This document shows, in pieces, positions 12,241 through 63,593 of a stretch of DNA of 64,000 bases (the stretch's first letter is position 1; each line of letters opens with the position of its first letter). The notes below the pieces were generated by a model that saw only the letters and a program-made list of their open reading frames with translations, was not told the origin of the DNA and did not search any database. The DNA is taken from contig JALNWY010000001.1 of the NCBI GenBank assembly GCA_023230665.1, positions 21,031-85,030 on the forward strand, given 5' to 3'. The position numbers were made by a program, and so were the translations under genes. This stretch comes from Deltaproteobacteria bacterium (GTDB lineage Bacteria > Desulfobacterota > Desulfomonilia > UBA1062).

Positions 12241-13221
12241 TCACACGAACGAGCCCGGCTTGGGTCTGATGCTGATGTCGTTCTGTTCGATCTTCTCGAC
12301 CAGCCGCTCCAGCAATTCGCGCGTCCTGCGCTGTTCATCCAGCAGCTTGTTGAGCATGTCTCTTAAGTCTCCGTTCTTCTGGGCGCCAGGGGCCGGTCCG
12401 GCCGGAACGGCCTTGTGTTTCGGGGCCTTTACCAGCATGGTGATGAGCCGTGTCCAGAACTTGTCGTGGTCTGCCTCCACCGATTCCTGCCCCAGAAGCG
12501 TGGACGCAATGATCCGGTAGCAACGGGCGATATCCGAGGTAGGGTACCTGACCACGGCCGGTACCTGGTCGGTAACGGCCCGGGAGAGTTTGTCGTCGCG
12601 GTAGACGCTCCCCAGGTATTCTACGTGGGTGTCCAGAAAACGCTGGGAAGCCGACGAGATCTTTTTGTAGAGGTTGTGCCCGGCAGAGCTGTTTTTCACC
12701 ATGCTTGAGAACATGGATATTCTCCCCGGGTAATCGTTTTTCTTGAGCACTTTGATCATGGCGTATGCGTCTGTGAGGCTGGTGGGCTCGGGCGCGACGC
12801 CCACGATCACCTCAGGCGCGGCCATGAGAAAGGAAATGACGCTTGAGGAGATGCCCGATGCCGTGTCGACGAGCAGGTAGTCAGAGGAAGCGGACAGGGC
12901 GGAAACCTGCTTCACCAGCTCTTTCAGCTGTTCCCTGCCCAGATCGGCCATATCCTGCGTGCCGGAGCATCCCGGGATGAGCTCCACATGGTAATCAGTC
13001 CTGAAGACGATCTCTCCAATCTCGAGCCTGCCCAGGATGACGTCTTCGAGTGTTCTGTTGGGCCGGATTCCCAGGAGCACGTCCATATTGGCAAGCCCGA
13101 GATCGGCATCGAGGATGCGCACCCGATGGTTCATCATGGCGAGACAGATGCCGACATTGAGCGTGAAGTTGCTCTTGCCCACGCCGCCCTTTCCTGATGT
13201 TACCGCCATGATCCGTGCCAT
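12241..13221 (-). CDS. MinD/ParA-family P-loop ATPase with an unusual C-terminal extension
   Basis: Deviant Walker A motif SGKGGVGKS. MinD-like core of about 250 aa, then an extra 75-aa Pro/Ala-rich plus coiled-coil tail. Start at MARIM (ATG 13221), with an AGGGAAG Shine-Dalgarno sequence upstream. Confidence 0.7.
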   Translation of the reverse strand: MARIMAVTSGKGGVGKSNFTLNVGICLAMMNHRVRILDADLGLANMDVLLGIRPNRTLEDVILGRLEIGEIVFRTDYHVELIPGCSGTQDMADLGREQLKELVKQVSALSASSDYLLVDTASGISSSVISFLMAAPEVIVGVAPEPTSLTDAYAMIKVLKKNDYPGRISMFSSMVKNSSAGHNLYKKISSASQRFLDTHVEYLGSVYRDDKLSRAVTDQVPAVVRYPTSDIARCYRIIASTLLGQESVEADHDKFWTRLITMLVKAPKHKAVPAGPAPGAQKNGDLRDMLNKLLDEQRRTRELLERLVEKIEQNDISIRPKPGSFV

Positions 13222-13352
13222 AGTTACTTCCCTGTGTTTTTTAAAAGCCTGCAATATGTGTGCAAAACATGCATATGGAAAATAAACGGGTTTTTCAAGG
13301 ACTTTGCTTAAGAAGAGAAAAATGTTTCTCCGTAAGGAGAACTATTTGTCTT

Positions 13353-16300
13353 CTATGCCCTCTGGAGCGACATGGACACCACCTTGCTGATTCCCGGCAC
13401 ATCAAAGGTCACGCCGTAGAGGATGTCGGACATTTCCATAGTATGCCGGTTGTGCGTGACAATGATGAACTGGGAATCGCGGGCAAAGCTCCGGATCAGG
13501 TGATTGAAGCGGACAACGTTGGCATCGTCGAGGGGCGCGTCCACCTCGTCGAGGATGCAGAAGGGAGACGGCCGCACCTTGAACAGGGCGAAGATGAAGC
13601 TCAGTGCGCACAGCGTCTTTTCACCCTCGGAGAGCAGGCTCATGGATTTGAGCCGTTTGAACGGCGGACAGGCCAGTATCTCGACCCCGGAATCGGGCGA
13701 GTTGCCGTCAAGGAGCACCAGGTCCGCCTTCCCTCCCCCGAACATGGTCGTGAAGAGCTCCTGGAAATGGTATTTCACCTGCTCAAAGGTCTCGGTGAAG
13801 GCCTTGACGCTCTGCTTCTCGATATTGGCGATAACCTCTCTCAGCCTTGCGCTCGCCTGGACGATATCCTCATACTGCCGGTGAAGTTCGTCCCATCTGG
13901 CCTGTACGTGCTCGAAGGCGTCCAGGGACGCGAAGTTGATCTGGCCCAGCTTCTCGATCCGGCCCTCCAGGGCTTCGACCTTCTGCCGGGCATCCTCGGA
14001 AGAGAAATCTTCCGGAACATCGGGGAGATCTTCTCCGGAAAACCGGGAGGCAAAGCGTTCGCTGCTCATGGTCAGGGCGATCTCCTGCTCCTTGGTTTTG
14101 AGAAGGATGTCGTTGCGTTTTTTTTCCAGGGAGACCAGGGTTTCCCGGCACTCGTCCCTGCTCTGGGCGAGCGTGGCCAGAGAGTCCAAGAGCTCCTCGT
14201 GTTCGGGAGTGGCGCTCTCCAGGGCCTCCCGCTGATTTTCGGCCTGCACCTGAAGCGCCTGGAGCCGGCTCCTGGACTTCACCAGGGCGTCCTGCACCGA
14301 GGCGAGCGTCTTGACCAGGTCTTCCCTTTTGCCGGCATCCCGGGAGACCTGCCGGGATATGCCCTCGATCTGTTCTTCAATCCCCTCAAGCCGTTGCCGT
14401 GCTGCCGCTGCCGCAACCTTGAGCTCGCCCGCCCGCTGCGCATGGGTGCTGATCGACTCCCGGGCATTCTGGAGCTGCTGCCGTGCGACCGCCCTCTTTT
14501 CGTCGAGGGACTTGACCTCATCCTGCAAGGCTTTGATCTGCTGGTCCAGCTCCTGCTTCTGTGTTTGGATATCCGCAAGATCGCTCTCGACCTTTTTCAC
14601 CATCGATTCCCACGTCTCGATGTCGCGCCGGTAAGACAGCTCGCGCTCGGAAATGCGCTCCAGCTCTCGCGAGGCAGCGTTCTTTTTTTCAGAAAGGGAT
14701 GCCGCCTGCTGCCTGAGCGACCGTTCCTCGCTCCCGGCCAGCTCCCGGTCTTCTCTGATCTGCTGCATCTCCTGCCTGAGCCGGGTGAGACACTCTTTTG
14801 TCGAGACGATCTCCCGATCCAGGACGATCTCCTGCCGGGAGAGCTCTTCCTTCTCGGCCTTTGCCTTGAGCCCTTCGGCATACTTGGCCATCTCTGCAGT
14901 GGTCCGGACGACCCCCGAGGGCTCGAGGATGACGCCGTCCCGGGTGACAAAGGTACAGAACCTCATGCCCTGTTTCCAAAACGAAAAGGCGCAGTGGATA
15001 TCCTCCACCACCCACATGTCTCCGGACAGGGCATGAACCACGTCTTCATAACCCTCCTGGGCCTCGACAAGATCTTCCAGACATGCAACGACGCCCTCTC
15101 CCTTCGGATCGGCCCCTGCCGGCCGGCCGTTCAGGTGCGGGCTCCGGGGGATGTACCCCGGGCCCCCGTCCTCGATCCGGCCCAGCTTCAGGATATCTTC
15201 ATGGTCCTGAACGATCAGGTAATCGAGCGATTTTCCCAGGGAGAGGCCTACGGTCTCCTCAAACCCGCTCCTCGCCTTCAGGGCTTCCGCAACCCGCCTT
15301 GTGCCGTTGTTCGTGGAGAGATCTCTGGGCCGTGGCATGGTTCCGGCGAGAATGATCCTCTCGAGCATGGATATCTTTGCCAGGAGCTGTGCGTGGGACT
15401 TCTCCAGTCCGGCCAGGGTGTGCGCGGTCCCCTCGATCCGGGACTGGAGCCCGTGCATCTGATCTCCCAGCGATTTCACCTTCTCGCCGAGGCTTTCGGC
15501 CCGAGATTTCGCCCGGGCATACTCTGCTTCAATCCCTTCATATTTCGACTCGAGAGATGCCCTTTGCGATCCGAGCTCGGACAGATCGGCGCGCCGTTTC
15601 CTTGCGTTGGCTTGGGCCTCGTGCCGCCTTGTCTCCATGGACGAGATCCGCTGCTGGGTTGCCCTGGAGTGGCCGATCGCATCGAAAAGCTGCGCCCTCT
15701 TCTGGTTGTACTCGCCCTCGAAAGCCCCGAATTCCTTTTCCACGGATTCGAGGTGGAGGTTCCGGGAATCCATCTCCTCTTCGATCTGCGCGATGTCCAG
15801 AGAAAGCCTTTCCAGATGGCCGCGTTCCTGTTCGCCCCTTTCGCGGAGCTCGCCGGTTTCCCGGGTCATCTGCCCGATGCGGCTCTGGAGCATCTCGATG
15901 GTTGACGCTATGTCCCGGGCCCTGTTCGTGTTCGCCTCGATCTCGCCCTCTGCGAGCAGGCCGCTGGAGCGGGCCTCTTCCATGGCGCGTCTGATCTCAT
16001 CCATGTTTCCGCGGACTACAGACAGCCTGGCATCCAAGCCTCCCATGGCCCGGGCATACTCCTCGTGCTGCTTCCTAAACGACTCCTCCTGCTGCCGCAC
16101 CTCCTGCAGCATCTCGTCGAGCTTTTCTTTTTTTTCCGTGATCTTCTGGATCTCGGAGGCCCAGAGCATCTTGGTGAGCGAATTGATTTCCGAACGCAGG
16201 CCCTGATATCTGCGGGCCTTGTTGGCCTGCGATTTCAGCTCGTCTCTCTGCCGGGAGACCTCGGTCAGCAGGTCGCGCACCCGCTCGAGGTTCCCTGCCG

Positions 16301-16859
16301 TGGCTTCGAGGCGCTTGATGGCGTCGGCCCGTTTGAAGCGGAACCTCCCCACCTCTGCAGCCTCTTCGATGAGATAGCGGATATCCTCGGGCCGGGACTG
16401 GATGATGTCCTTGACCTTGCCTTGTTCCACAATGGCATACCTGTGCCGGTCGAGGCCCGTGTCCAAAAACAGGTCGGTGATGTCCTTGAGCCTGCATCTG
16501 ACCCCGTTCAGGGAATAGATGCTCTCGCCGGTGCGATAGAGCCTCCGGGAGATGGACGCCTCGTCGAACCCGTCCAGGCTTTTGGGAAAATAGCCGCCGT
16601 CCCGCGCGAACTCCATGACCACTTCGGCCATTGATCCGGGAGGCACATCCTGGGTGCCTGAAAAGATCACCTCGCTCATGGACCCGGCGCGCAGAGAGCG
16701 GTTCGACTGTTCACCCAGGGCCCACCGGACAGCGTCGATGATATTGCTCTTCCCGCAGCCGTTGGGCCCGGCAATGCACGTCACTCCATCGGCGACGGGC
16801 AGCGAGGTCTTCTTGGCAACGGATTTGAAACCCCGGATCTCAATCCTCTTCAATTTCAC
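13353..16859 (-). CDS. smc: Chromosome segregation protein SMC
   Basis: N-terminal Walker A motif GPNGCGKSN; very long coiled-coils; hinge; C-terminal LSGGEKTLCALSF signature and Walker B motif ILDEVDAPLD. Probable GTG start (VKLKRIEIRGFKS) at 16859. An in-frame ATG at 16925 is a possible alternative start. Confidence 0.9.
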   Translation of the reverse strand: MKLKRIEIRGFKSVAKKTSLPVADGVTCIAGPNGCGKSNIIDAVRWALGEQSNRSLRAGSMSEVIFSGTQDVPPGSMAEVVMEFARDGGYFPKSLDGFDEASISRRLYRTGESIYSLNGVRCRLKDITDLFLDTGLDRHRYAIVEQGKVKDIIQSRPEDIRYLIEEAAEVGRFRFKRADAIKRLEATAGNLERVRDLLTEVSRQRDELKSQANKARRYQGLRSEINSLTKMLWASEIQKITEKKEKLDEMLQEVRQQEESFRKQHEEYARAMGGLDARLSVVRGNMDEIRRAMEEARSSGLLAEGEIEANTNRARDIASTIEMLQSRIGQMTRETGELRERGEQERGHLERLSLDIAQIEEEMDSRNLHLESVEKEFGAFEGEYNQKRAQLFDAIGHSRATQQRISSMETRRHEAQANARKRRADLSELGSQRASLESKYEGIEAEYARAKSRAESLGEKVKSLGDQMHGLQSRIEGTAHTLAGLEKSHAQLLAKISMLERIILAGTMPRPRDLSTNNGTRRVAEALKARSGFEETVGLSLGKSLDYLIVQDHEDILKLGRIEDGGPGYIPRSPHLNGRPAGADPKGEGVVACLEDLVEAQEGYEDVVHALSGDMWVVEDIHCAFSFWKQGMRFCTFVTRDGVILEPSGVVRTTAEMAKYAEGLKAKAEKEELSRQEIVLDREIVSTKECLTRLRQEMQQIREDRELAGSEERSLRQQAASLSEKKNAASRELERISERELSYRRDIETWESMVKKVESDLADIQTQKQELDQQIKALQDEVKSLDEKRAVARQQLQNARESISTHAQRAGELKVAAAAARQRLEGIEEQIEGISRQVSRDAGKREDLVKTLASVQDALVKSRSRLQALQVQAENQREALESATPEHEELLDSLATLAQSRDECRETLVSLEKKRNDILLKTKEQEIALTMSSERFASRFSGEDLPDVPEDFSSEDARQKVEALEGRIEKLGQINFASLDAFEHVQARWDELHRQYEDIVQASARLREVIANIEKQSVKAFTETFEQVKYHFQELFTTMFGGGKADLVLLDGNSPDSGVEILACPPFKRLKSMSLLSEGEKTLCALSFIFALFKVRPSPFCILDEVDAPLDDANVVRFNHLIRSFARDSQFIIVTHNRHTMEMSDILYGVTFDVPGISKVVSMSLQRA

Positions 16860-17121
16860 ATCTTTTGTGTACCAGAGCTTCCCTGGGATCGCAAGAGGGG
16901 TTCTCCTCAAGGCCCGTGGATGCATGCCACACCTTTTTCTTTGCTGCCTGGTTTCCTGTTTTCGCCTGCTTGGGCAGGAGGCCCCCGGAGGAGAGCAGCG
17001 ACCGAGGAAGACGCAGGGTGCCCTCAGGACGTATGCGGTGGAGTGGAAAATCCTTGCAATATCTTCCCGAAAACGGCAATACATGAAGGAATATTTTCCA
17101 AGGGTGTGCCAGGAGGGAATC

Positions 17122-17718
17122 ATGTACGGAGTGAACAATCCCCTTGTATTTGCCGGGCAGCTGCTTCATATCGCGCTTACGGTCTATCTGTGGATCATTA
17201 TCATCGGCGCTCTGATATCCTGGGTGAATCCCGATCCCTATAACCCGGTGGTGCGGTTTCTCCGCAGGGCCACCGACCCGCTCTTCTTCTGGCTCAGACG
17301 GCATATACCGCTTATTGCGGGCGGGATTGACTTCTCGCCCGTCATCGCCATCGCGCTCATCATCTTCCTCGGTTCTTCCCTGGTCCCTATCCTGATCGAA
17401 GGAGGAAATATCCCGGCGAATGTTCTCATCGGGTTCGGACAGTCCGTTTCCATGCTGCTGAACTTTTATCTCGTCGTAGTGATCCTCTCCGCGGTATTGA
17501 GCTTCGTGAGTCCCAACCCCTATAACCCTGTCGTGCGCATCATTTCCGCGCTGACCTTCCCGGTGTTCTCCTGGTTCCGAAGGAGATTGCCGCTGGTTTA
17601 TGGAGGCATCGATTTCACCCCGGCACTGGTCATCGTCCTGATCCTGCTCATCAATTCCTATGGGACTCAAACCCTGATCCGTCTGGGGGTCAATTTAAAA
17701 ATGAAAGGAGTGTTCTGA
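17122..17718 (+). CDS. yggT: YggT-family membrane protein (tandem duplicated YggT domain)
   Basis: Two repeats of the WxNPxPYNPVVRF...RRxxPL...GGIDFSP pattern. AGGAGGG Shine-Dalgarno sequence before the ATG at 17122. Confidence 0.7.
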   Translation: MYGVNNPLVFAGQLLHIALTVYLWIIIIGALISWVNPDPYNPVVRFLRRATDPLFFWLRRHIPLIAGGIDFSPVIAIALIIFLGSSLVPILIEGGNIPANVLIGFGQSVSMLLNFYLVVVILSAVLSFVSPNPYNPVVRIISALTFPVFSWFRRRLPLVYGGIDFTPALVIVLILLINSYGTQTLIRLGVNLKMKGVF

Positions 17719-38650: not shown

Positions 38651-41071
38651 TCAGGCCTCCTCGCCCACGTTTCTGGTGAAGTCAATGATCTTTTCGTTTT
38701 CCTTCATCCTGATGGCGCGCACCCCCTGCGCAGAGCGCGTCGAGGTTGTGCGTATCTGGGACACCGGCATCCGGATGATCTGTCCGGATGTGGAGATGAT
38801 CATGAGCTCGTCGGTTCTCTGAACCACCCTGATCCCCACCAGATTGCCCGTCTTTTTCGTGATATGCACCGTCAGCACGCCTTTGCCGGCCCGTTTCTGG
38901 ACAGGATACCTGTTCACCGGGGTCTTCTTGCCATAGCCGAACTCCGTGAGGTTGATCACGTAGTCCTCGGGTGAGGTGATGACGTCCATCCCGACCACCA
39001 GATCGCCCTCGTCCAGACGAATGGCTCTCACGCCCTGGGCCTGCCTTCCCATGACCCTGACCTGATCTTCGGAGAAGATAATGGCCTTGCCATGGCCCGA
39101 GGCAACGATGATGTCGTCATTGCCGCTGGTGAGACGGGCGGATATCACTTTGTCCCCGGGCTCCAGGGTGCAGGCGATGATGCCGTTTTTGATGATGTTC
39201 GCAAAGTCTCGGAGCATGACTCGTTTGGTATACGCCTTTGCGGTGACCATCATCACCCTTGCGTCGGCCGTGAGATCAGACGCCACCAGGATGGCACAGA
39301 TCCGCTCCTCTTTCTGCAGGGGCCGGATATTGACGATGGGTACCCCCTTCAGGGCCCTGTCGCGTTCGGGAACCTCATAGACCTTGGTGTGATACACCCT
39401 GCCGGTATTGGTGAAATAGAGGATCGAGGTATGATTGGAGGCAACAAAAATATGCTCGATAAAGTCGTCCTCCGTGGCGGCCCCGGCCCGTATGCCCACT
39501 CCACCCCGCTTCTGGGTCCGGTACTTGGTGAGCTCGGTGCGCTTGATATATCCCTTTCTCGTCATGGTGACGACCATCTGCTCGTCGGGAATCAGCTCTT
39601 CGATATTGAATCCTCCTGCGGAACCGCGGACGATGAGTGATCTGCGCTCGTCGGCATACTTTTCCTTGATCTCGATGAGCTCGCTCCTGATGACATTGAG
39701 CAGCTCTTCCCGGTCGGCGAGAATTTTTTCAAGACGAGCAATTTCTTCCATAAGCCTTTGATATTCATCGGTTATCTTGTCGCGCTCGAGTCCGGTGAGC
39801 CTTTGGAGTCTCATATCGAGAATGGCCTGCGCCTGGATCTCGCTCAGCTCGAACCGCTGCATGAGGTTGTCCCTGGCAACCTGCGGGGTGGACGAAGCCT
39901 TGATGATGGCCACCACCTCATCGATATTGTCCAGGGCCTTGAGCAATCCTTCGAGGATGTGAACCCGTGCCCTGGCCTTGCCCAGCTCGAAGATGCTCCT
40001 GCGGGTGACGACTTCCTCGCGGAAATCGAGGAACGCCTGGAGCAGCTCCTTGATGCCCATCACCTTGGGCCTTCCGTTATGGATGGCGAGCATATTCATG
40101 GAAAATGAGTTCTGGAGGTTGGTGAGCTTGTAGAGCTGCTTTTCGACCACCTCGGGTTGGGCTCCCCGTTTCAGATCGATCACCACGCGCATGCCGTCCT
40201 TGTCGGACTCGTCGCGGATATTGGAGATGCCGTCGATCTTCTTGTCCTGGGCCAAGATCGCGATCCTTTCAACCAGATCCGCCTTGTTCACCGTATAGGG
40301 AAGCTCGGTGATGATGATCTTCTCGCGGTTGCTGTCCCGCTCGATATCGACCTTCCCGCGTATTGTGATGATTCCCCGGCCCGTTGCATAGGCCTTCTCG
40401 ATCTCGCCGTTGGAAAAGATGATCCCTCCGGTGGGGAAGTCCGGGCCGGGGATGATCTTCATGATATCCGCAAGCCCGATTTCCGGTGAATCAATCAGAG
40501 AAATCAGGGCGGCTATGGTCTCGTCACTGTTGTGCGGAGGGATGCTCGTAGCCATTCCGACGGCGATTCCCGATGAACCGTTCAGCAGCAAAGCCGGTAT
40601 CCGGGTGGGAAGGACGTCCGGCTCAAGCAGGGATTCATCGTAATTCGGGTGCATGTTCACGGTTTCTTTTTCGATATCCGAGAGCATTTCCTCGGCAAGG
40701 CGCTCCATCCGGATCTCGGTATATCGCATAGCAGCCGGTGGATCGCCGTCAATGGACCCGAAGTTGCCTTGGCCGTCCACCAGGGGATAGCGCATGGAGA
40801 AATCCTGGGCCATGCGGACAATGGTATCGTACACCGCGGAATCACCGTGGGGATGGTATTTACCAATGACGTCTCCCACGATTCTCGCTGATTTCTTGTA
40901 TGGCCGGTTATAGGTATTGGAAAGCTCGCTCATGGCGAACAATACCCTTCGGTGGACAGGCTTGAGGCCGTCCCTCACATCCGGGATGGCCCGCCCGATA
41001 ATGACGCTCATGGAATAATCCAGGTATGAGCGCCTCATTTCCTGATCTATTGCTACTGAATCTGTCTTCAT
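38651..41071 (-). CDS. gyrA: DNA gyrase subunit A
   Basis: N-terminal gate with the active-site Tyr region ([10 protein letters not shown]), and QRDR-like [17 protein letters not shown]; 806 aa. Confidence 0.95.
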
Positions 41072-41098: not shown

Positions 41099-44628
<3,530 letters not shown>

Positions 44629-44798
44629 TTTTTATTCTCCCTATGTAATAGTAAAAAATATTATACGGTGTCAAGATGTTCATATGTCAATCAATGCACT
44701 GTTATTACAAGAATATTTCACTCCAAAACAAGGTCTAAAACTTATCGACATACACCCTGTCTGCCCTGCACCTGTCGATATGTCTGCAAACCATTGCA

Positions 44799-45653
44799 TC
44801 AGATCGGCGCCTCTTGTTCACAAATCGCTGCAACGATGCGGGAAAGCTCATCTCGAGAGGAAACATTGATCACGATTTTTCCTCTGCGTTTTTTCCAATC
44901 ACAAATAACCTTTGCCGAGAGCTTCTCGGAAAGAAGGGTGGAGAGGTGATCAAAATAGGGATCGGCCTTTTTCGCCCCTTTTTTCTTGTTCCTGGTATCT
45001 ATACCAGAGGCATGGTGCTCGGCCTCCCTGACGTTCAATGACTGGCTGACGATACGGTTCAGGAGAGAAATCTGACCGGTCCCGCCCTCCACCATCAGAA
45101 TTGCCCGGGCATGACCGGTTGTGATCATGCCTTCTCGCAAGGCCTGCTTCACCTCCTCGGGCAGATGGATCAAACGCATGGAATTTGTTACGGTCGAACG
45201 GTCCTTGATAACGGCATCGGCGATCTCCTGATGGGTCAGGCCAAACTGTTCTTTCAGTGTATAGTATGCCTCGGACTCTTCCATGGGGTTCAGGTCTTCG
45301 CGCTGAAGGTTTTCGATGAGTGATATCTTGAATGCCTCGGCATCGGGAATGTCCCTTACAATGGAAGGTATCTTCTGGATGCCGGCGAGCTTGCATGCCT
45401 GATACCTTCTTTCACCGGCTATGATCTCATAGCGGGTATTTGTTCTCCGGACCAGGATGGGAGAAATGAGCCCATGGCTCTTGATGGATGCGGCAAGCTC
45501 GGCAATGGTCTTCTCGTCAAAGGATTTTCTCGGCTGAACAGGATTTGGATAAATCTCATCAACCGGTATATCGATAACCTGGACACCGTCTTCATGAACA
45601 CTGTCAGCAAAGATGGCGTCGATACCTCTTCCTAACCGGGATTTAGGTTTCAT
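44799..45653 (-). CDS. parB: Chromosome partitioning protein ParB/Spo0J
   Basis: ParB box motifs (GERRYQA, helix-turn-helix region) and an N-terminal arginine patch; 284 aa. Confidence 0.9.
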   Translation of the reverse strand: MKPKSRLGRGIDAIFADSVHEDGVQVIDIPVDEIYPNPVQPRKSFDEKTIAELAASIKSHGLISPILVRRTNTRYEIIAGERRYQACKLAGIQKIPSIVRDIPDAEAFKISLIENLQREDLNPMEESEAYYTLKEQFGLTHQEIADAVIKDRSTVTNSMRLIHLPEEVKQALREGMITTGHARAILMVEGGTGQISLLNRIVSQSLNVREAEHHASGIDTRNKKKGAKKADPYFDHLSTLLSEKLSAKVICDWKKRRGKIVINVSSRDELSRIVAAICEQEAPI

Positions 45654-46425
45654 GATCAGCCTCCATTTCGAGGATTTCTTTTGCCAGCATCAGATAATGC
45701 TGAGCCCCTTTCGAAGAAATATCGTACAGACAGATCGGGACACCGAAACTCGGGGCCTCGCACAAGCGGATATTCCTCGGAATGATGGTGCGAAACACCT
45801 GGGAATCGAAGTGAACCCTCACGTTCTCGGCGATATCATGACTGAGCCTGGTGCGCGAGTCAAACATGGTGAGAAGGAAACCCTCGATGCTCAGACTCGG
45901 GTTCAGCCTTTTTTTCACGAGCCGGAAGGTGTTCATGAGGCTCTTGAGACCTTCCAGGGCATAATACTCGCACTGAACAGGCACCAGGAGAGAGTGAGCA
46001 GCAGTGAGGGCGTTGAGGGTGAGGAGCCCGAGAGAGGGGGGGCAGTCGATCACGATGAAATCGAAAGTATGCGTCATCCCGGCAAGGGAGCGGGAAAGGA
46101 TGCGCTCACGGAAGGGAGCGTCCATCAACTCTACCTCGACACCCACAAGATCGGCATGACTCGACATGATGAAAAAGTTCCGGAGCTTTGTCTCCTGGAT
46201 CACGGAATCGGCATCCTTCTGACCGATCATCACGTGATATACATGAGAAGAAAAAGAGTCTGGGTTGTAACCAAGACCCGTGGTTGCATTTGCCTGGGGA
46301 TCAAGATCGATCAGCAGGGTTCGTTTTCCGAGCAACGCCAGAGAAGAACCGAGATTTATGGATGTGGTGGTCTTCCCGACTCCGCCTTTTTGATTGGACA
46401 CACTTATGATTTTAGGACGCACCAT
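45643..46425 (-). CDS. parA: Chromosome partitioning ATPase ParA/Soj
   Basis: Deviant Walker A motif NQKGGVGKTTT; 260 aa; overlaps the parB start by 11 nt. Confidence 0.9.
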   Translation of the reverse strand: MVRPKIISVSNQKGGVGKTTTSINLGSSLALLGKRTLLIDLDPQANATTGLGYNPDSFSSHVYHVMIGQKDADSVIQETKLRNFFIMSSHADLVGVEVELMDAPFRERILSRSLAGMTHTFDFIVIDCPPSLGLLTLNALTAAHSLLVPVQCEYYALEGLKSLMNTFRLVKKRLNPSLSIEGFLLTMFDSRTRLSHDIAENVRVHFDSQVFRTIIPRNIRLCEAPSFGVPICLYDISSKGAQHYLMLAKEILEMEADHET

Positions 46426-46463
46426 GATGATCTACCATAAAAGAAAACTTTTTTAAATAAAAA

Positions 46464-46479
46464 AGTTTCACGTGAAACA
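46464..46479. promoter_or_regulatory. parS centromere-like site AGTTTCACGTGAAACA (15/16 match to the TGTTTCACGTGAAACA consensus)
   Basis: Perfect 14-bp palindrome GTTTCACGTGAAAC read directly, 39 nt upstream of the parA start. The ParB-binding consensus is established knowledge. Confidence 0.7.
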
Positions 46480-46480
46480 A

Positions 46481-46489
46481 TGTGGATAA
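46481..46489 (-). promoter_or_regulatory. Perfect DnaA box (TTATCCACA on the minus strand) within an AT-rich stretch; candidate oriC element
   Basis: TGTGGATAA read on the plus strand, immediately 3' of parS. The surrounding 46440-46530 is about 80 percent AT. Confidence 0.55.
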
Positions 46490-46674
46490 CATTTGAATTA
46501 AACAATGATTTTTCTGATAAAATAATGAAAAAGGGTGAATTCTCTTTCCTGGTAGGCTTTGGATGACTGTAAAGCAAGGCCCTCATTCGCGTTTGGGCTT
46601 GCTGTGCGAGGCCAGGCCTTTGGACCGTGATCTCAAGGCCCATAGCAGAGACGCCCCCCTTTTTTTAAGGCTGT

Positions 46675-47190
46675 TCATCGGGGGAAAAACCGGATGATGA
46701 CGATAATGAAGAGCAGGATCACTGTAATCCAGGCCCCGGTGATATCGCTTTTGCGTACGATGATATGCTCTTTCAAGGCAGAGAGACCGGACCCCAACAC
46801 CTCGGGATTTGCCACACTCTCCAGGTCCGAGATAATCTCCGGAAATCCGGCAAAGCTGTTCGGTATGAGGAAGCTCTTCTTTTTTGTGGTCAGGGATATG
46901 AACTGCCTCGAGCCGATTGATATGCCCTCAATGCGCATGATATCGCCGATGGAAACCTTTCTTGGGCCGAGTATGCCGCCTATGGTGACGGCGGAATCAG
47001 TGATCCGAATCTTGCGCAGCAGGTTGTTGATGGTAAGGAGATAGAACAGTATCATGAGGAGCAGGGCCATCAACAAAATAGAGAGCTCGAAGCCCGACAA
47101 GATCACGTCCACGAAGATGGGGATGGACACGAGTGTGGCAAGGACCATGGGGACCTGCAGGTTCTTTTTTATCTTGTAAACCCTATCCAT
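46675..47190 (-). CDS. Hypothetical membrane protein
   Basis: ORF with two predicted transmembrane helices (LATLVSIPIFVDVILSGF..., AWITVILLFIIVIIRFF) and a central soluble segment. I recognise no motif. Start set at the internal M (MDRVYK). Confidence 0.4.
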   Translation of the reverse strand: MDRVYKIKKNLQVPMVLATLVSIPIFVDVILSGFELSILLMALLLMILFYLLTINNLLRKIRITDSAVTIGGILGPRKVSIGDIMRIEGISIGSRQFISLTTKKKSFLIPNSFAGFPEIISDLESVANPEVLGSGLSALKEHIIVRKSDITGAWITVILLFIIVIIRFFPR

Positions 47191-49415: not shown

Positions 49416-49488
49416 GCGGGCATAGCTCAGTTGGTAGAGTGTCAGCTTCCCAAGCTGAATGTCGCGGGTTCGAATCCCGTTGCCCGCT
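49416..49488 (+). tRNA. tRNA-Gly (anticodon CCC)
   Basis: I folded the cloverleaf by hand. 7-bp acceptor stem GCGGGCA/TGCCCGC; D-arm GCTC-AGTTGGTA-GAGT; anticodon stem TCAGC/GCTGA with loop TTCCCAA; T-arm GCGGG-TTCGAAT-CCCGT; discriminator U. CCA is not encoded. Confidence 0.85.
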
Positions 49489-49539
49489 TTTGATACGCGT
49501 ATGGGAAGCGAAAGAACAGGAAATGTGGAGGGAGACGAA

Positions 49540-49562
49540 GTGGGCGATAGCCCACTTTTTTA
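49540..49562 (+). terminator. Terminator/attenuator hairpin (GTGGGC-GATA-GCCCAC plus U-run) between the tRNA and rimP
   Basis: 6-bp GC-rich stem, 4-nt loop, then TTTTTTATTT, ending 8 nt before the rimP ATG. The arrangement mirrors the E. coli metY-rimP leader. Confidence 0.5.
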
Positions 49563-49569
49563 TTTCATA

Positions 49570-50004
49570 ATGAAGCAGACGGAACAGGAGAAAAAATTAT
49601 ACAAGCTGGTGGCGCCGGAAGTGGCCATGATGGGCTTTGAGCTCATCGATATGGACTTTTCCCGGGGGCTCCTGCGCCTCACCATCGACAAGCCGGGCGG
49701 GGTCACGCTGGACGACTGTGTTTCAGTCAACCGTAGAGTGAGCCTGCTGCTGGATACGAACGATCCCATCGAGGGATCGTACCGGCTTGAGATATCGTCG
49801 CCGGGCCTCAATCGGAGGCTCAAGACGCTGAAGGAATTCGAGCACTTTGCCGGGAGAAAGGTCAAAATACAGACGAGAGAGGCAACATTCCGGGGAACAA
49901 TCAAGGGGTTGGCACAAGAGAGTGTTCTGATTGCCATCGACGGCACGCAACAGGAGGTGCCGTTTAAAGATATTCAGAAGGCCAATCTGGAATTCGATCT
50001 CTAG
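49570..50004 (+). CDS. rimP: Ribosome maturation factor RimP
   Basis: N-terminus aligns with E. coli RimP (TEQEKKLYKLVAPEVAMMGFELIDMDF versus [26 protein letters not shown]); SPGLNRRL motif. Confidence 0.85.
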   Translation: MKQTEQEKKLYKLVAPEVAMMGFELIDMDFSRGLLRLTIDKPGGVTLDDCVSVNRRVSLLLDTNDPIEGSYRLEISSPGLNRRLKTLKEFEHFAGRKVKIQTREATFRGTIKGLAQESVLIAIDGTQQEVPFKDIQKANLEFDL

Positions 50005-50012
50005 GAGAACGT

Positions 50013-51248
50013 ATGGTTTTAAATCTTTCAAAGGTCATTGAGTTGATCGTAAAGGAAAAGGGCCTCAGGGAAGAAGACCTGGTGCAGGTGGTAGAGGCTG
50101 CGGTGCAGAGCGCTGCGAAAAAGGTCTATGGCGATTACGACAACATCGAAGCGCACTACAACCCTGAGCTCGACGAGGTGGAGGTCTTCCAGTTCAAGGT
50201 CATCTCTGAAGAGGTTGAAGATCCGAATGTCCAGATATCTTTTAAAGAGGCGCGGAAGCTCGATCCCAACTGCCAGATCGGCGATGAGCTCGGGGAAAAG
50301 CTCGATTCCTCCAAGCTGGGGAGGATCGCCGCCCAGAGCGCCAAGCAGGTGATCGTACAGAAGGTGAAGGAAGTCGAGCGCGACGCTGTGTATAATGATT
50401 TCATCGACCGGAAGGGCGAGCTGGTATCAGGCTTTGTTCACCGGTTCGACAGGCGCGATGCCATCCTCAATCTCGGGAAGGCGGAGGCGATCCTGCGCGA
50501 AAAGGAAATGATCCCCGGCGAATCTTTCAGAAGAGGGGATCGCATCCAGGCCCTTATCCTGGACGTGACCAAGTCGTTGAGAATGCCCCAGATAGAGCTC
50601 TCCCGCACGCATCCGAGGTTTCTCGTCAAGCTCTATGAGATGGAAGTACCGGAAGTCACCGAGGGGATCGTGGAGATCGTAGCCGTTGCGCGGGAGCCCG
50701 GGATCCGGGCGAAGATCGCCGTGCGCTCGCACGATCCCAAGGTGGATCCGGTGGGAACCTGCGTCGGCGTAAAGGGGGCGCGGGTACAGAATGTGATCCA
50801 GGAGCTGAAAGGCGAGAGGCAGGATATCGTCGTGTGGTCGGAAGACCCGGTCAGGTTCGTTTGCAATGCCCTTTCGCCCGCCCGGGTGTCCAAGGTGATT
50901 GTGGATAAATCCGCCTGGAGCATGGATGTGGTCGTCGCGGACGACCAGCTCAGCCTTGCCATCGGGAGAAAGGGGCAGAATGTCAGGCTTGTGGCCAAGC
51001 TCACGGGTTGGAAGATCGATGTCCGCTCCGAGCACGCTGAAGAGAGCGTGTCTTCCGAGGAGGGTACTGCGTTAACCAGCATCAATGAGCTCGATGAATC
51101 GCTGGCTGAAATTTTGATGGAAGCCGGTTATCGGACCATTGAGGATCTGGCCAAGGCAAAGGAGGAAGACCTCCTGGAGTTTGAAGGAATCGATGAAAAT
51201 CTGGCAAAAGAACTGATAAAAAAGGCGTCGGTGGGAGTGAGTGGATAA
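50013..51248 (+). CDS. nusA: Transcription termination/antitermination protein NusA
   Basis: N-terminal domain, S1 domain, two KH domains (GxxG) and a C-terminal acidic repeat; 411 aa. Confidence 0.95.
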   Translation: MVLNLSKVIELIVKEKGLREEDLVQVVEAAVQSAAKKVYGDYDNIEAHYNPELDEVEVFQFKVISEEVEDPNVQISFKEARKLDPNCQIGDELGEKLDSSKLGRIAAQSAKQVIVQKVKEVERDAVYNDFIDRKGELVSGFVHRFDRRDAILNLGKAEAILREKEMIPGESFRRGDRIQALILDVTKSLRMPQIELSRTHPRFLVKLYEMEVPEVTEGIVEIVAVAREPGIRAKIAVRSHDPKVDPVGTCVGVKGARVQNVIQELKGERQDIVVWSEDPVRFVCNALSPARVSKVIVDKSAWSMDVVVADDQLSLAIGRKGQNVRLVAKLTGWKIDVRSEHAEESVSSEEGTALTSINELDESLAEILMEAGYRTIEDLAKAKEEDLLEFEGIDENLAKELIKKASVGVSG

Positions 51249-60553: not shown

Positions 60554-60958
60554 TTACGGAGAGACGTGCCTGATCTCCGTGAAGAACGAAGGCCGGGGAT
60601 TTTCCGCGACAAATCTCTTCCAGGCGGGCCGATCAGATTTGCTGATGAGAATGCCGATGAGGTAGAGGTCTCTCTCGATCGTGTACCCCATGATCGTACC
60701 TGTTACGGTTACGTTCCCGGTGCTTACGGTTACGTCCTGGTTCAGGAGTTTCAAAAGCGTAATCTTGATTCGCGTGGTAGGGGCCTTTATGCAGATTTCA
60801 TGAGGGGAGAAATACTGAGTCTTTCCTTCGAACGAGCAATTTTCCACGGGACAGGATATTTTCAGGTGTATCGACTCATGTCTTCTGTTCAGGCTCAAGT
60901 TCAGGGGAAACATGTTTCTGCTTGCATCTCCTTTCAATAGTATCTTATTCTTCTGCAA
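60554..60958 (-). CDS. Hypothetical protein, lower GC, possibly a degenerate PilZ-like beta-barrel
   Basis: 134-aa ORF convergent with the M16 peptidase gene, 6 nt from its stop. N-x-S-x-x-G motif (NCSFEG) but no intact RxxxR. Contains an internal TTACGGTTACGT direct repeat in the DNA. Confidence 0.35.
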   Translation of the reverse strand: MQKNKILLKGDASRNMFPLNLSLNRRHESIHLKISCPVENCSFEGKTQYFSPHEICIKAPTTRIKITLLKLLNQDVTVSTGNVTVTGTIMGYTIERDLYLIGILISKSDRPAWKRFVAENPRPSFFTEIRHVSP

Positions 60959-60972
60959 GAATGATGCCTGCT

Positions 60973-61881
60973 ATGAGAAACCTGAAGATTATCCTTGCCT
61001 ATGACGGGTCGAACTTTCATGGGTGGCAGTTTCAGACCGCGATGAGGACGGTTCAGGAAACGGTTGAAAAGAGCCTTCAGGATATCCTGGGCCACGAGGT
61101 CAGGGTGACCGCCTCGGGCCGTACCGATGCCGGGGTCCATGCCCTGGGGCAGGTCATCAATTTCCGGACCCGCTCCAGGATTCCGGCCCACGGGCTGCTC
61201 AGGGCATTGAACACCGTGTTCCCCCCGGACCTTTCCGCCCGTGAAGTCCGGGAGGTTTCCCCTGATTTTCATGCCAGATATTTGGCGATTTCCAAGAAAT
61301 ATGTGTATGTCGTTGATATATCCACGATCCCAAGCCCGTTTCTCTCCCGATACGTCATGAATCTGCCGGGCGGGCTCGATGTCCAGGCAATGAGACAGGC
61401 TGCGCATGCACTGAAGGGACAACATGATTTCAGCTCGTTCATGGGTGCGGGATCGTGGGTCAAAACAACGGTCAGGGAGATCTTCGATTTCGAGATATTC
61501 GGCAAAGGTTCCCGAGTGTTCTTCTGTATACGGGGTAGCGGCTTTCTGCGTCATATGGTAAGGAACATCGTGGGCACGCTGATCCCGGTGGGGCAGGCAG
61601 AGATGACACCCCGGGACGTGGAGAGGATCCTTGGGCTCAGGGATCGCACCCAGGCAGGTCCCACGGCGCCTCCGCAGGGGCTCTATCTCGTAGAGGTCGA
61701 GTACGGCGGGCACGGGAAAAGCAGCGATACGGACACGCATCGCCGGCAGGAGGGAGAGCCCGGAACAGGGGCCACCGGCGAGAACAAGAAATGGCTCGAG
61801 GAGGGTTTGAATGATGAGGGGCGTTGTGCTGGCAGGCGGTCTGGGGACGAGGCTGCATCCGCTGACCAAGGTGACCAATAA
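60973..61881 (+). CDS. truA: tRNA pseudouridine(38-40) synthase
   Basis: ILAYDGSNFHGWQ and RTDAGVHALGQV catalytic-Asp motifs. About 50 aa of acidic, low-complexity C-terminal extension overlaps the next gene by 71 nt. Confidence 0.85.
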   Translation: MRNLKIILAYDGSNFHGWQFQTAMRTVQETVEKSLQDILGHEVRVTASGRTDAGVHALGQVINFRTRSRIPAHGLLRALNTVFPPDLSAREVREVSPDFHARYLAISKKYVYVVDISTIPSPFLSRYVMNLPGGLDVQAMRQAAHALKGQHDFSSFMGAGSWVKTTVREIFDFEIFGKGSRVFFCIRGSGFLRHMVRNIVGTLIPVGQAEMTPRDVERILGLRDRTQAGPTAPPQGLYLVEVEYGGHGKSSDTDTHRRQEGEPGTGATGENKKWLEEGLNDEGRCAGRRSGDEAASADQGDQ

Positions 61882-62545
61882 GCATCTTCTGCCGATATAC
61901 GATAGGCCGATGATCTATTATCCCATCGAGGCGCTCACCAATGCCGGGATAAAAGAGATCATGGTGGTGACGGGTGGAAACAATGCAGGGGATTTTCTCC
62001 GGCTGCTGGGCAACGGCAAGGAGTTCGGGCTGAGCCGGATTCACTATGCCTATCAGGAAGGCGAGGGCGGGATCGCCGAGGCCCTGGGGCTGGCGGAGTC
62101 CTTTGCCGAGGGAAGGCCCATCTGTGTGGTGCTGGGTGATAACATCATCGAGAAGAACATCGTCCGGGCCGTCACCGAGTATCGACAACAGGGCGGGGGG
62201 GCCCGGATCATGCTCAAGAAAGTGCCCGACCCGGATCGCTTCGGCGTGCCGGTCTTCGAAGGAGACCGTATCACCGCTATCGAGGAAAAGCCGAAGGATC
62301 CAAAGAGCAGCTATGCCGTAATCGGGATCTACATGTACGACTCGCGGGTTTTCGACATTATCCACGGGCTTTCCCCCTCCAAGCGGGGAGAGCTGGAGAT
62401 CACGGACGTGAACAACGACTATATCCGCGCGGGCACCATGCAGTGGTCTATTCTCGACGGCTGGTGGACCGATGCGGGGACCATCGAGAGCCTGTTGAAG
62501 GCAGGAAATCTGGTGGCAAAGACGGGCGCCAACAAAAGAGACTAG
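61811..62545 (+). CDS. Sugar-phosphate nucleotidyltransferase (short RmlA-like glucose-1-phosphate thymidylyltransferase)
   Basis: GVVLAGGLGTRLHPLT N-terminal signature. 244 aa, shorter than the roughly 290 aa of canonical RmlA. Confidence 0.65.
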   Translation: MMRGVVLAGGLGTRLHPLTKVTNKHLLPIYDRPMIYYPIEALTNAGIKEIMVVTGGNNAGDFLRLLGNGKEFGLSRIHYAYQEGEGGIAEALGLAESFAEGRPICVVLGDNIIEKNIVRAVTEYRQQGGGARIMLKKVPDPDRFGVPVFEGDRITAIEEKPKDPKSSYAVIGIYMYDSRVFDIIHGLSPSKRGELEITDVNNDYIRAGTMQWSILDGWWTDAGTIESLLKAGNLVAKTGANKRD

Positions 62546-62576
62546 CGAGGGTGTCTTGAAAACAAAGGGGAAGCAC

Positions 62577-63593
62577 ATGAAGGTACTCGTGACGGGAGGC
62601 TGCGGATTCATCGGGACAAACCTTTTGCGCCACATTCTCGCAAACAGGCCTGACTGGAGCGTGGTGAACCTCGATCTGCTCACCTATGCCGGGAATCTCG
62701 AGAACACCATGGATCTGGCCGAGGCATATCCGGGGCGGTATGAGTTCGTCAAAGGAGACATCGCGGACCATGCGGGTGTCGACGCCCTGTTTTCCCGGCA
62801 TTCGTTCGATCTGGTGTTCAACCTTGCCGCGGAATCCCATGTGGACAGAAGCATCGAGGACTCGGGCATATTCGTGAGGACGAACATCCTGGGCGTTCAG
62901 GTGCTCCTCGACGCGGCGAGACGGCACAAGGCCGGCCGCTTTCTGCACGTCTCGACCGACGAGGTGTACGGCAGCTTGGGCCCAGAGGGGCGTTTCAGGG
63001 AGGACTTTCACCTGGCGCCCAACAGCCCGTACTCCGCGTCAAAGGCGGCCGCCGATCTTTTGGTGAGGTCCTACGTGAAGACCCACGGCCTGGATGCGGT
63101 GATCACCCGGTGCTCCAATAATTACGGGCCCTACCAGTTTCCGGAAAAGCTCATACCCCTGATGGTGATCAATGCCTTCAACGATAGGGAGCTCCCGGTG
63201 TACGGACAGGGCAGGAACGTGAGAGACTGGATCTACGTGGACGACCACTGCCGGGGGATCGTCATGGTGGCGGAGAACGGGAGGTGCGGCGAGGCCTACA
63301 ACATGGGCGGAGACGCGGAAAAGGAAAATATCCAGATCGTCCGGCTTATCCTCGAGAATCTGGCCAAGCCCGATTCCCTCATCCGGTTTGTCACCGACAG
63401 GCCGGGCCACGATTTCCGCTATGCCATGGACTTTGCGAAGATCGAAGCGGAGCTGGGCTGGCAGCCGGAACACGGGTTCGATGAAGGGTTGAGAAAGACC
63501 ATCGCGTGGTATCTGGGCAACCAGTCGTGGTGGGAGAAGATCCTTTCGGGAAGTTACCGGCACTATTATGAGAGGATGTACGGAAGCCGATGA
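62577..63593 (+). CDS. rmlB: dTDP-glucose 4,6-dehydratase
   Basis: VLVTGGCGFIG NAD-binding motif and YSASKAA catalytic YxxxK. Start at ATG 62577. Confidence 0.9.
   Translation: MKVLVTGGCGFIGTNLLRHILANRPDWSVVNLDLLTYAGNLENTMDLAEAYPGRYEFVKGDIADHAGVDALFSRHSFDLVFNLAAESHVDRSIEDSGIFVRTNILGVQVLLDAARRHKAGRFLHVSTDEVYGSLGPEGRFREDFHLAPNSPYSASKAAADLLVRSYVKTHGLDAVITRCSNNYGPYQFPEKLIPLMVINAFNDRELPVYGQGRNVRDWIYVDDHCRGIVMVAENGRCGEAYNMGGDAEKENIQIVRLILENLAKPDSLIRFVTDRPGHDFRYAMDFAKIEAELGWQPEHGFDEGLRKTIAWYLGNQSWWEKILSGSYRHYYERMYGSR

Follow-up and report, generated by a model that had tools for sequence, protein, structure and literature searches.

The 64-kb window, i.e. the whole stretch of DNA that was analysed, carries the gene series parA-parB-dnaN-gyrB-gyrA on its minus strand. 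By gene calling and Pfam searches, parA (45643-46425) encodes a 260-aa Soj-type Walker ATPase (Pfam AAA_31/CbiA) and parB (44799-45653) a protein with the ParB_N, HTH_ParB and ParB_C domains; dnaN (43504-44628, the beta clamp), gyrB (41099-43483) and gyrA (38651-41071) were placed next to them by gene calling, and Pfam identified smc (13353-17138, minus strand), encoding a condensin that is the expected downstream client of ParB-parS. Gene calls and Pfam thus confirmed the neighbourhood reported in a preliminary description of this DNA, namely that the five genes adjoin and smc lies ~30 kb off. A GERRY CTP-binding motif was read from the ParB translation, and the closest solved structures of this protein are Thermus Spo0J 1VZ0 (E=4e-56) and H. 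pylori ParB 4UMK, with 7BNK (‘ParB family protein’), B. subtilis Spo0J 6SDK and 6T1F (‘Chromosome-partitioning protein ParB’) as other relatives in the PDB. Next to parA, a predicted membrane protein of 157 aa with no Pfam family is encoded at 46675-47148 (minus strand), and the stop of its gene bounds a 249-bp parA-upstream spacer at 46426-46674.

From 47205 onward the genes lie on the plus strand, i.e. an inositol-monophosphatase-family gene (suhB-like), tatD, yjbQ and tRNA-Gly(CCC), followed by rimP-nusA-ylxR-infB-rbfA-truB, rpsO and pnp; rho, prfA, dksA and purL/Q are located between smc and gyrA. The tRNA-Gly(CCC) occupies 49416-49488 (plus strand), just upstream of rimP, and an orphan Mrp/ParA-like P-loop ATPase is encoded at 12241-13254 (minus strand), directly beside smc. 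Two mechanically predicted ORFs exceed the called genes: a 181-aa rimP ORF (49459-50004) overlaps tRNA-Gly(CCC), the called rimP having 154 aa, and an 810-aa gyrB ORF overlaps dnaN, the called gyrB having 794 aa. Long minus-strand ORFs at 60554-63563, including the one at 61637-62683, were discarded as spurious, the called genes there (PseudoU_synth_1 family, nucleotide-sugar) being on the plus strand.

For comparison, species-representative genomes with a DnaN alignment were collected, giving 45 loci with DnaN identities from 92% to 45%; the DnaN relatives belong to uncultured Desulfomonilia, Ca. Phosphitivorax, ‘Deltaproteobacteria bacterium Phox-21’ and UBA1062. An identical ParA is encoded by metagenomic contigs and by the MAG GCA_050949585.1, whose 893-kb contig JBMNFZ010000006.1 has it in a 20.8-kb locus at 532603-553385, with parA at ~0.54 Mb. 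Gene order was kept in each of the 37 loci of sufficient length: a suhB-like gene (where one was detected) comes first, then the membrane protein, parA, parB, dnaN, gyrB and gyrA. The 157-aa membrane protein directly precedes parA, in the same orientation, in every related genome, at 32-86% identity. The absence of dnaA from the window, stated earlier, was verified by tblastn, in which a DnaA query obtained no match in the window even at E≤10; likewise, no dnaA was detected within ±10 kb of dnaN in the 45 related species (tblastn, E≤10). The query was a B. subtilis DnaA sequence, and a Pfam check assigned it 270 bits to Bac_DnaA and 108 bits to Bac_DnaA_C.

The parA-upstream spacer holds AGTTTCACGTGAAACA at 46464-46479 (TGTTTCACGTGAAACT in the parA sense), which matches the parS consensus TGTTNCACGTGAAACA at 15 of 16 positions and includes the perfect 14-bp palindrome GTTTCACGTGAAAC; direct reading bore out the near-consensus match and the palindrome that had been described. 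This is the sole parS match at ≤3 mismatches in the 64-kb window and in its extension to 80 kb on the same contig, where the search for further copies found none, and 100 dinucleotide shuffles yielded no match at ≤1 mismatch. Canonical ParA and ParB are encoded adjacent to the site. Among the related loci, the 13-bp parS core TTTCACGTGAAAC was invariant in 39 of 39, with DnaN identities down to 47%, and parS started 54-63 bp before the parA start in all of them, with flanks diverging freely. Because the core is invariant and held at a fixed distance from parA, it is judged to be under purifying selection, and 46464-46479 is, on the strength of this conservation, a genuine and deeply conserved chromosomal parS to which ParB is predicted to bind.

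A second parS-like site, TGTTTTACGTGGAACA (2 mismatches), occurs just beyond gyrA in the closest sister species (loci L007-L010), ~+8.0 to +8.2 kb when counted from the start of parA; no counterpart of it was detected in the window at ≤3 mismatches.

The DNA around parS is AT-rich, as had been noted for a segment of ~90 bp: positions 46440-46530 are 80.2% AT, the whole window being 57.5% GC, and the most AT-rich 90-mer of the window (46437-46526, 81% AT) holds parS, a DnaA-box match and a putative parA promoter. By aligning the related loci on the palindrome, we found the order TTGATT-N16/17-TATGGT(AG)-N8-start codon conserved after parS in the parA sense. In the window, the putative -35 element reads TTTATT (46456-46461, minus strand; TTGATT in relatives) and begins 2 nt after the parS 16-mer, and the putative -10 element TATGGT (46434-46439, minus strand) falls in a conserved TATGGTAG block. 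The conserved TTGATT-N16/17-TATGGT may thus be read as the parA promoter, with an mRNA that is possibly leaderless or near-leaderless; alternatively, TATGGTAGA could be a weak ribosome-binding site, and the promoter would then lie upstream of parS. The proposal is drawn from conservation, and a sigma-70 scan of the sequence did not flag the proposed promoter. Under either reading of TATGGT, parAB expression signals would account for both the AT-richness and the fixed distance from parS to the start codon.

A perfect match to the DnaA box TTATCCACA is present at 46481-46489 (minus strand; TGTGGATAA on the plus strand), as reported before, except that one base and not two separates it from parS. 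The window contains two perfect boxes, compared with 0.21 expected, the second being located at 50900-50908 inside the nusA codons I-V-D-K. At ≤2 mismatches, the only other box in the parA-upstream spacer is TCATCCAAA at 46558, 69 bp away, so the box search suggested earlier returned a single box here and no cluster, and it was the parB-dnaN spacer that displayed a conserved cluster of box-like repeats. The box is perfect in the window species only and is absent from 37 of 38 related species. At the nine homologous positions, 0 mismatches to TTATCCACA were counted in the window species, 1 in one locus, 2 in two loci, 3 in six and 4-9 in 29, and at ≤1 mismatch a box was found in the window and in one other among the 38 loci compared. 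Even the nearest relatives, with DnaN 90-92% identical, have TTATCTGTA, TTATCCATA and TTATCAATA at the box position. TTAT alone is semi-conserved there (21-26 of 39 loci); agreement with CAC, the triplet at positions 6-8 by which a DnaA box is defined, is at chance level, with 5, 12 and 9 of 39 loci matching at the three positions in turn. Moreover, the box is polymorphic within the species, since one of the six contigs with a 100% identical ParA (L003) has TTATCCGCA, with a substitution at the position homologous to 46483. Because it is non-conserved in relatives and varies within the species, the box does not appear to be under purifying selection, and the perfect match at 46481-46489 is, judging from these comparisons, a recent and unselected coincidence that overlaps the semi-conserved TTAT element. 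From base composition we estimate, however, that a 115-bp AT-rich stretch would carry a perfect TTATCCACA at a single base's distance from parS with an a priori chance of only ~1e-3, which counts against coincidence.

Boxes at ≤1 mismatch were enriched at 43-51 kb (8 of the window's 13), and this enrichment was set aside, the recurring ones being coding coincidences. Both TTGTCCACA at 43338-43346 (gyrB codons V-D-N) and the nusA box at 50900-50908 recur in relatives, which is attributed to coding constraint and not to a DnaA-box function.

The cumulative G-C curve of the window is V-shaped, with a minimum at 45158 and a plateau from 39 to 46 kb, and the minimum stayed at 45158 after extension to 80 kb on the same 893-kb contig. 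Gene orientation diverges at ~47.2 kb: left of 47.15 kb, ~32 kb of coding sequence lies on the minus and 8 kb on the plus strand (~80% minus), and right of ~47.2 kb nearly all called genes are on the plus strand. The skew minimum was also located in 22 related loci of 21 kb each: measured from the start of parA, its median position is +1.4 kb, inside parB, and 15 of these loci have it in the range +575 to +1658. As GC skew and gene orientation both switch at ~45-47 kb, the locus is plausibly origin-proximal, as judged on 80 kb, and the proposed skew check, made over those 80 kb, thus placed the minimum near the locus, albeit within a broad plateau. Of the candidate origin proposed in the preliminary description, the origin-proximal setting was judged plausible, while the placement in the parA-upstream spacer itself, with its single non-conserved box, was only partly supported. 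Per-gene skew at four-fold degenerate sites in ~40 species revealed no step, gyrA resembling parB, and with 1.7 kb between them the parA-upstream and parB-dnaN spacers are too close to be told apart by GC skew. Proximity to oriC is described for chromosomal parS sites (PMC7022226).

The parB-dnaN spacer (44629-44798, 170 bp) comprises an array of box-like repeats, the dnaN promoter and AT-rich DNA. Three repeats were identified in the window, i.e. ATATCGACA at 44773-44781 (minus strand), which lies in a conserved column block ACATATnnACA; its inverted partner TTATCGACA at 44742-44750 (plus strand), with 1 mismatch to the DnaA box; and ATATGAACA at 44677-44685 (minus strand), 2 nt upstream, in the dnaN sense, of the -35 element TTGACA of the dnaN promoter (44669-44674). 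Across 45 species, the density of wTATnnACA was 13.0 per kb in this spacer versus 0.39 per kb in the background, a ~33-fold enrichment, and relative to the dnaN ATG the repeats keep their places, at about -155, -120 and -55. In most species the array is the only cluster of at least three wTATnnACA in a 20-kb locus, and in the 64-kb window the spacer accounts for 3 of 9 matches. Summed over 38 species, 92 lineage-type boxes were counted in 6.9 kb of parB-dnaN spacers versus 1 in 5.4 kb of parA-upstream spacers, that single one being the window's own. The least stable 40-mer within ±8 kb was located for 38 species: 21 have it in the dnaN-upstream spacer, 6 in the parA-upstream one and the other 11 elsewhere. 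In addition, the promoter-proximal box is followed by at least three NTN trios in 27 of 40 species as against 41% of shuffles, a mild enrichment. C at position 6 is conserved in known high-affinity DnaA boxes. The repeats of the parB-dnaN spacer are non-canonical, matching at 7-8 of 9 positions, and overlap the dnaN promoter.

Where replication starts can be read from these data in several ways. That the parA-upstream spacer is the chromosomal origin, with DnaA binding at the perfect box and the AT-rich stretch acting as the unwinding element, would agree with the position of the box in the most AT-rich 90-mer of the window and with the skew minimum and orientation switch within ~1-2 kb. The box also formally satisfies the permissive rule of PMC8287927 for a basal unwinding system (BUS: DnaA box, spacer, DnaA-trios, AT-rich DNA): T-rich DNA follows it, and at the loosest setting, with 16 bp of spacer, TTT TTT ATT can be read as the trios. 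Yet the 16-bp ‘spacer’, of the maximum allowed length, is parS itself, the trios lack the GAT consensus, and 87% of shuffles of the T-rich downstream sequence pass as well, so the BUS/DnaA-trio rule was set aside as origin evidence, being too permissive in T-rich DNA. Against this reading also stand the solitary box with no second one at ≤2 mismatches next to it, its lack in 37 of 38 related species and its mutation in one strain of the same species, the conserved promoter-like element that would explain the AT-rich DNA, and the scarcity (6 of 38 species) of the least stable 40-mer at this place; an origin at 46426-46674 is accordingly improbable. The box beside parS might still be functional without being an origin, coupling initiation to segregation or regulating parAB, for which speak its perfect match, the single nucleotide that separates it from parS, its place immediately before the putative promoter, and the binding of DnaA in the Caulobacter parS region, next to parS, according to a passage in the review PMC6399470 citing Mera et al. 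2014. The likeness to Caulobacter lies in a DnaA box directly beside parS; the difference is that the box here varies within the species and is not conserved in close congeners, and a function confined to part of one species is unlikely; we regard this reading as very improbable. Also very improbable, for these uncultured Desulfobacterota as a class, is a bipartite origin/centromere module around the partition operon and uncoupled from dnaA, made up of the dnaN-proximal TTATSNACA array and the parS-bearing AT-rich parA promoter, in which the box would strengthen the link in a manner comparable to Caulobacter.

The parB-dnaN spacer appears the best candidate, and the origin is more likely to lie there, just upstream of dnaN, than in the parA-upstream spacer. 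It would be the origin or the main DnaA-binding region, a relic of the ancestral dnaA-dnaN origin that stayed after dnaA had relocated, with the relaxed, lineage-specific box TTATSNACA (variants TTATCGACA and TATGAACA), where the AT-rich DNA before dnaN unwinds and parS is separate, 1.7 kb away. The wTATnnACA enrichment with the cluster at fixed positions, the share of the window's matches, the frequent location of the least stable 40-mer, the NTN trios and the skew minimum of the relatives in the adjoining parB all argue for it. A precedent is offered by cyanobacterial origins, which lie beside dnaN with dnaA elsewhere and use the variant box TTTTCCACA (PMC4009838); 44629-44798 resembles them in having dnaN without dnaA and a variant-box cluster directly upstream, but is much shorter, has boxes that relax the position-6 C and parAB in the place of dnaA, and is a candidate from sequence only. 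Several points weigh against it, namely that the spacer is only 170 bp and must also house the dnaN promoter, that the boxes deviate at position 6 (C), that certain boxes overlap in pairs with a period of 8 bp, unusual for DnaA, that the repeats could be operators of DnaA or another regulator controlling dnaN, and that parB, parA and the membrane-protein gene would run head-on to the fork; a literature search for the variants TTATCGACA, TTATGAACA and TTATCTACA found no paper on them in the library searched. Hence this placement of the origin is proposed tentatively, as a serious candidate. The true origin may instead lie in neither spacer, e.g. beside dnaA outside the window, with the local skew and orientation reflecting gene content. 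Consistent with this are the 80 kb covered of an 893-kb contig, the very weak skew of the left arm (-0.004 to -0.063), the purine-rich translation genes that boost the skew of the right arm, and a synonymous-site skew without a step. However, the cumulative minimum is stable on extension, the genes diverge from the locus, and parS, parAB, dnaN and gyrBA are classic origin-linked markers, which makes an origin elsewhere rather unlikely.

Taken as a whole, we consider it likely that parS lies in the parAB promoter, that the DnaA box beside it is coincidental and that the origin is better placed in the parB-dnaN spacer, although the parA-upstream spacer is the window's most AT-rich segment and lies nearer to the gene-orientation switch than the parB-dnaN spacer, both of which count against this reading. 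The site itself is, as far as conservation and position indicate, a chromosomal parS of the ordinary kind that sits among the promoter elements of parAB. It would serve, in the promoter region of its own parAB operon, as the centromere of the origin-proximal part of the chromosome. From what is known of the family, ParB dimers would recognise the 16-bp palindrome through the HTH domain, bind CTP at the GERRY motif, close into a clamp and slide onto the flanking DNA, and the partition complex would be moved by ParA and load SMC onto the origin region. ParB nucleation at parS would probably also feed back on parAB transcription, because parS adjoins the -35-like element and its spacing from the parA start is constant across the class. 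The AT-richness would be that of the promoter, and the replication origin would probably lie within a few kb, the parB-dnaN spacer being the best candidate.

The locus resembles the ParABS systems of B. subtilis (Spo0J-parS), Thermus, H. pylori, Caulobacter and Myxococcus in matching TGTTNCACGTGAAACA at 15/16 and in its canonical adjacent ParA and ParB (GERRY, HTH and dimerisation domains), and it shares with such chromosomal systems a nearby smc and, plausibly, the origin-proximal setting, but differs in that a single site was detected in 80 kb. One parS site of B. subtilis lies inside the spo0J gene, whereas here parS is located upstream of parA, abutting a -35-like element, at a fixed distance across the class. 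The centromere upstream of the par operon is a feature in common with V. cholerae chromosome II parS2/rctA and plasmid par operons; unlike these, the present site is a canonical parS on a primary chromosome, and repression would be deduced from its position only. In V. cholerae, ParB auto-represses parAB2 from a centromere upstream of the operon (PMC6399470), and in P. aeruginosa the genes next to intergenic parS sites are repressed by the ParB bound there (PMC7022226).

The main bearing of the locus is cautionary: a perfect DnaA box beside parS in an AT-rich parA spacer mimics an origin, and the parA-upstream spacer would probably be flagged by a rule of the Ori-Finder type. Comparison with 45 related genomes shows that, as far as conservation reveals selection, only parS and not the neighbouring box is under it. 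For an uncultured lineage of syntrophs and phosphite oxidisers, the analysis also provides a firmly supported predicted centromere, the class-wide gene order parA-parB-dnaN-gyrB-gyrA with no dnaA alongside, and a candidate origin that is linked to dnaN and has a variant box motif. The fixed geometry of parS and promoter further makes it possible to test whether ParB autoregulates a chromosomal parAB operon.

Two further features were observed in the parA-upstream spacer. Its GC-rich half (46540-46674), bracketed by an imperfect inverted repeat (46528-46545/46647-46664), is present in the closest relatives only, in which the spacer measures 237-252 bp versus ~120-130 bp elsewhere; as a structured RNA this half was rejected, with no Rfam match and non-significant folds on both strands (z -0.5 and -1.05). 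The other is a perfect 11-nt inverted repeat (AAACTTTTTTA/TAAAAAAGTTT, 46445-46468), which shares sequence with the putative -35 region and with the left arm of parS and is semi-conserved among near relatives only.
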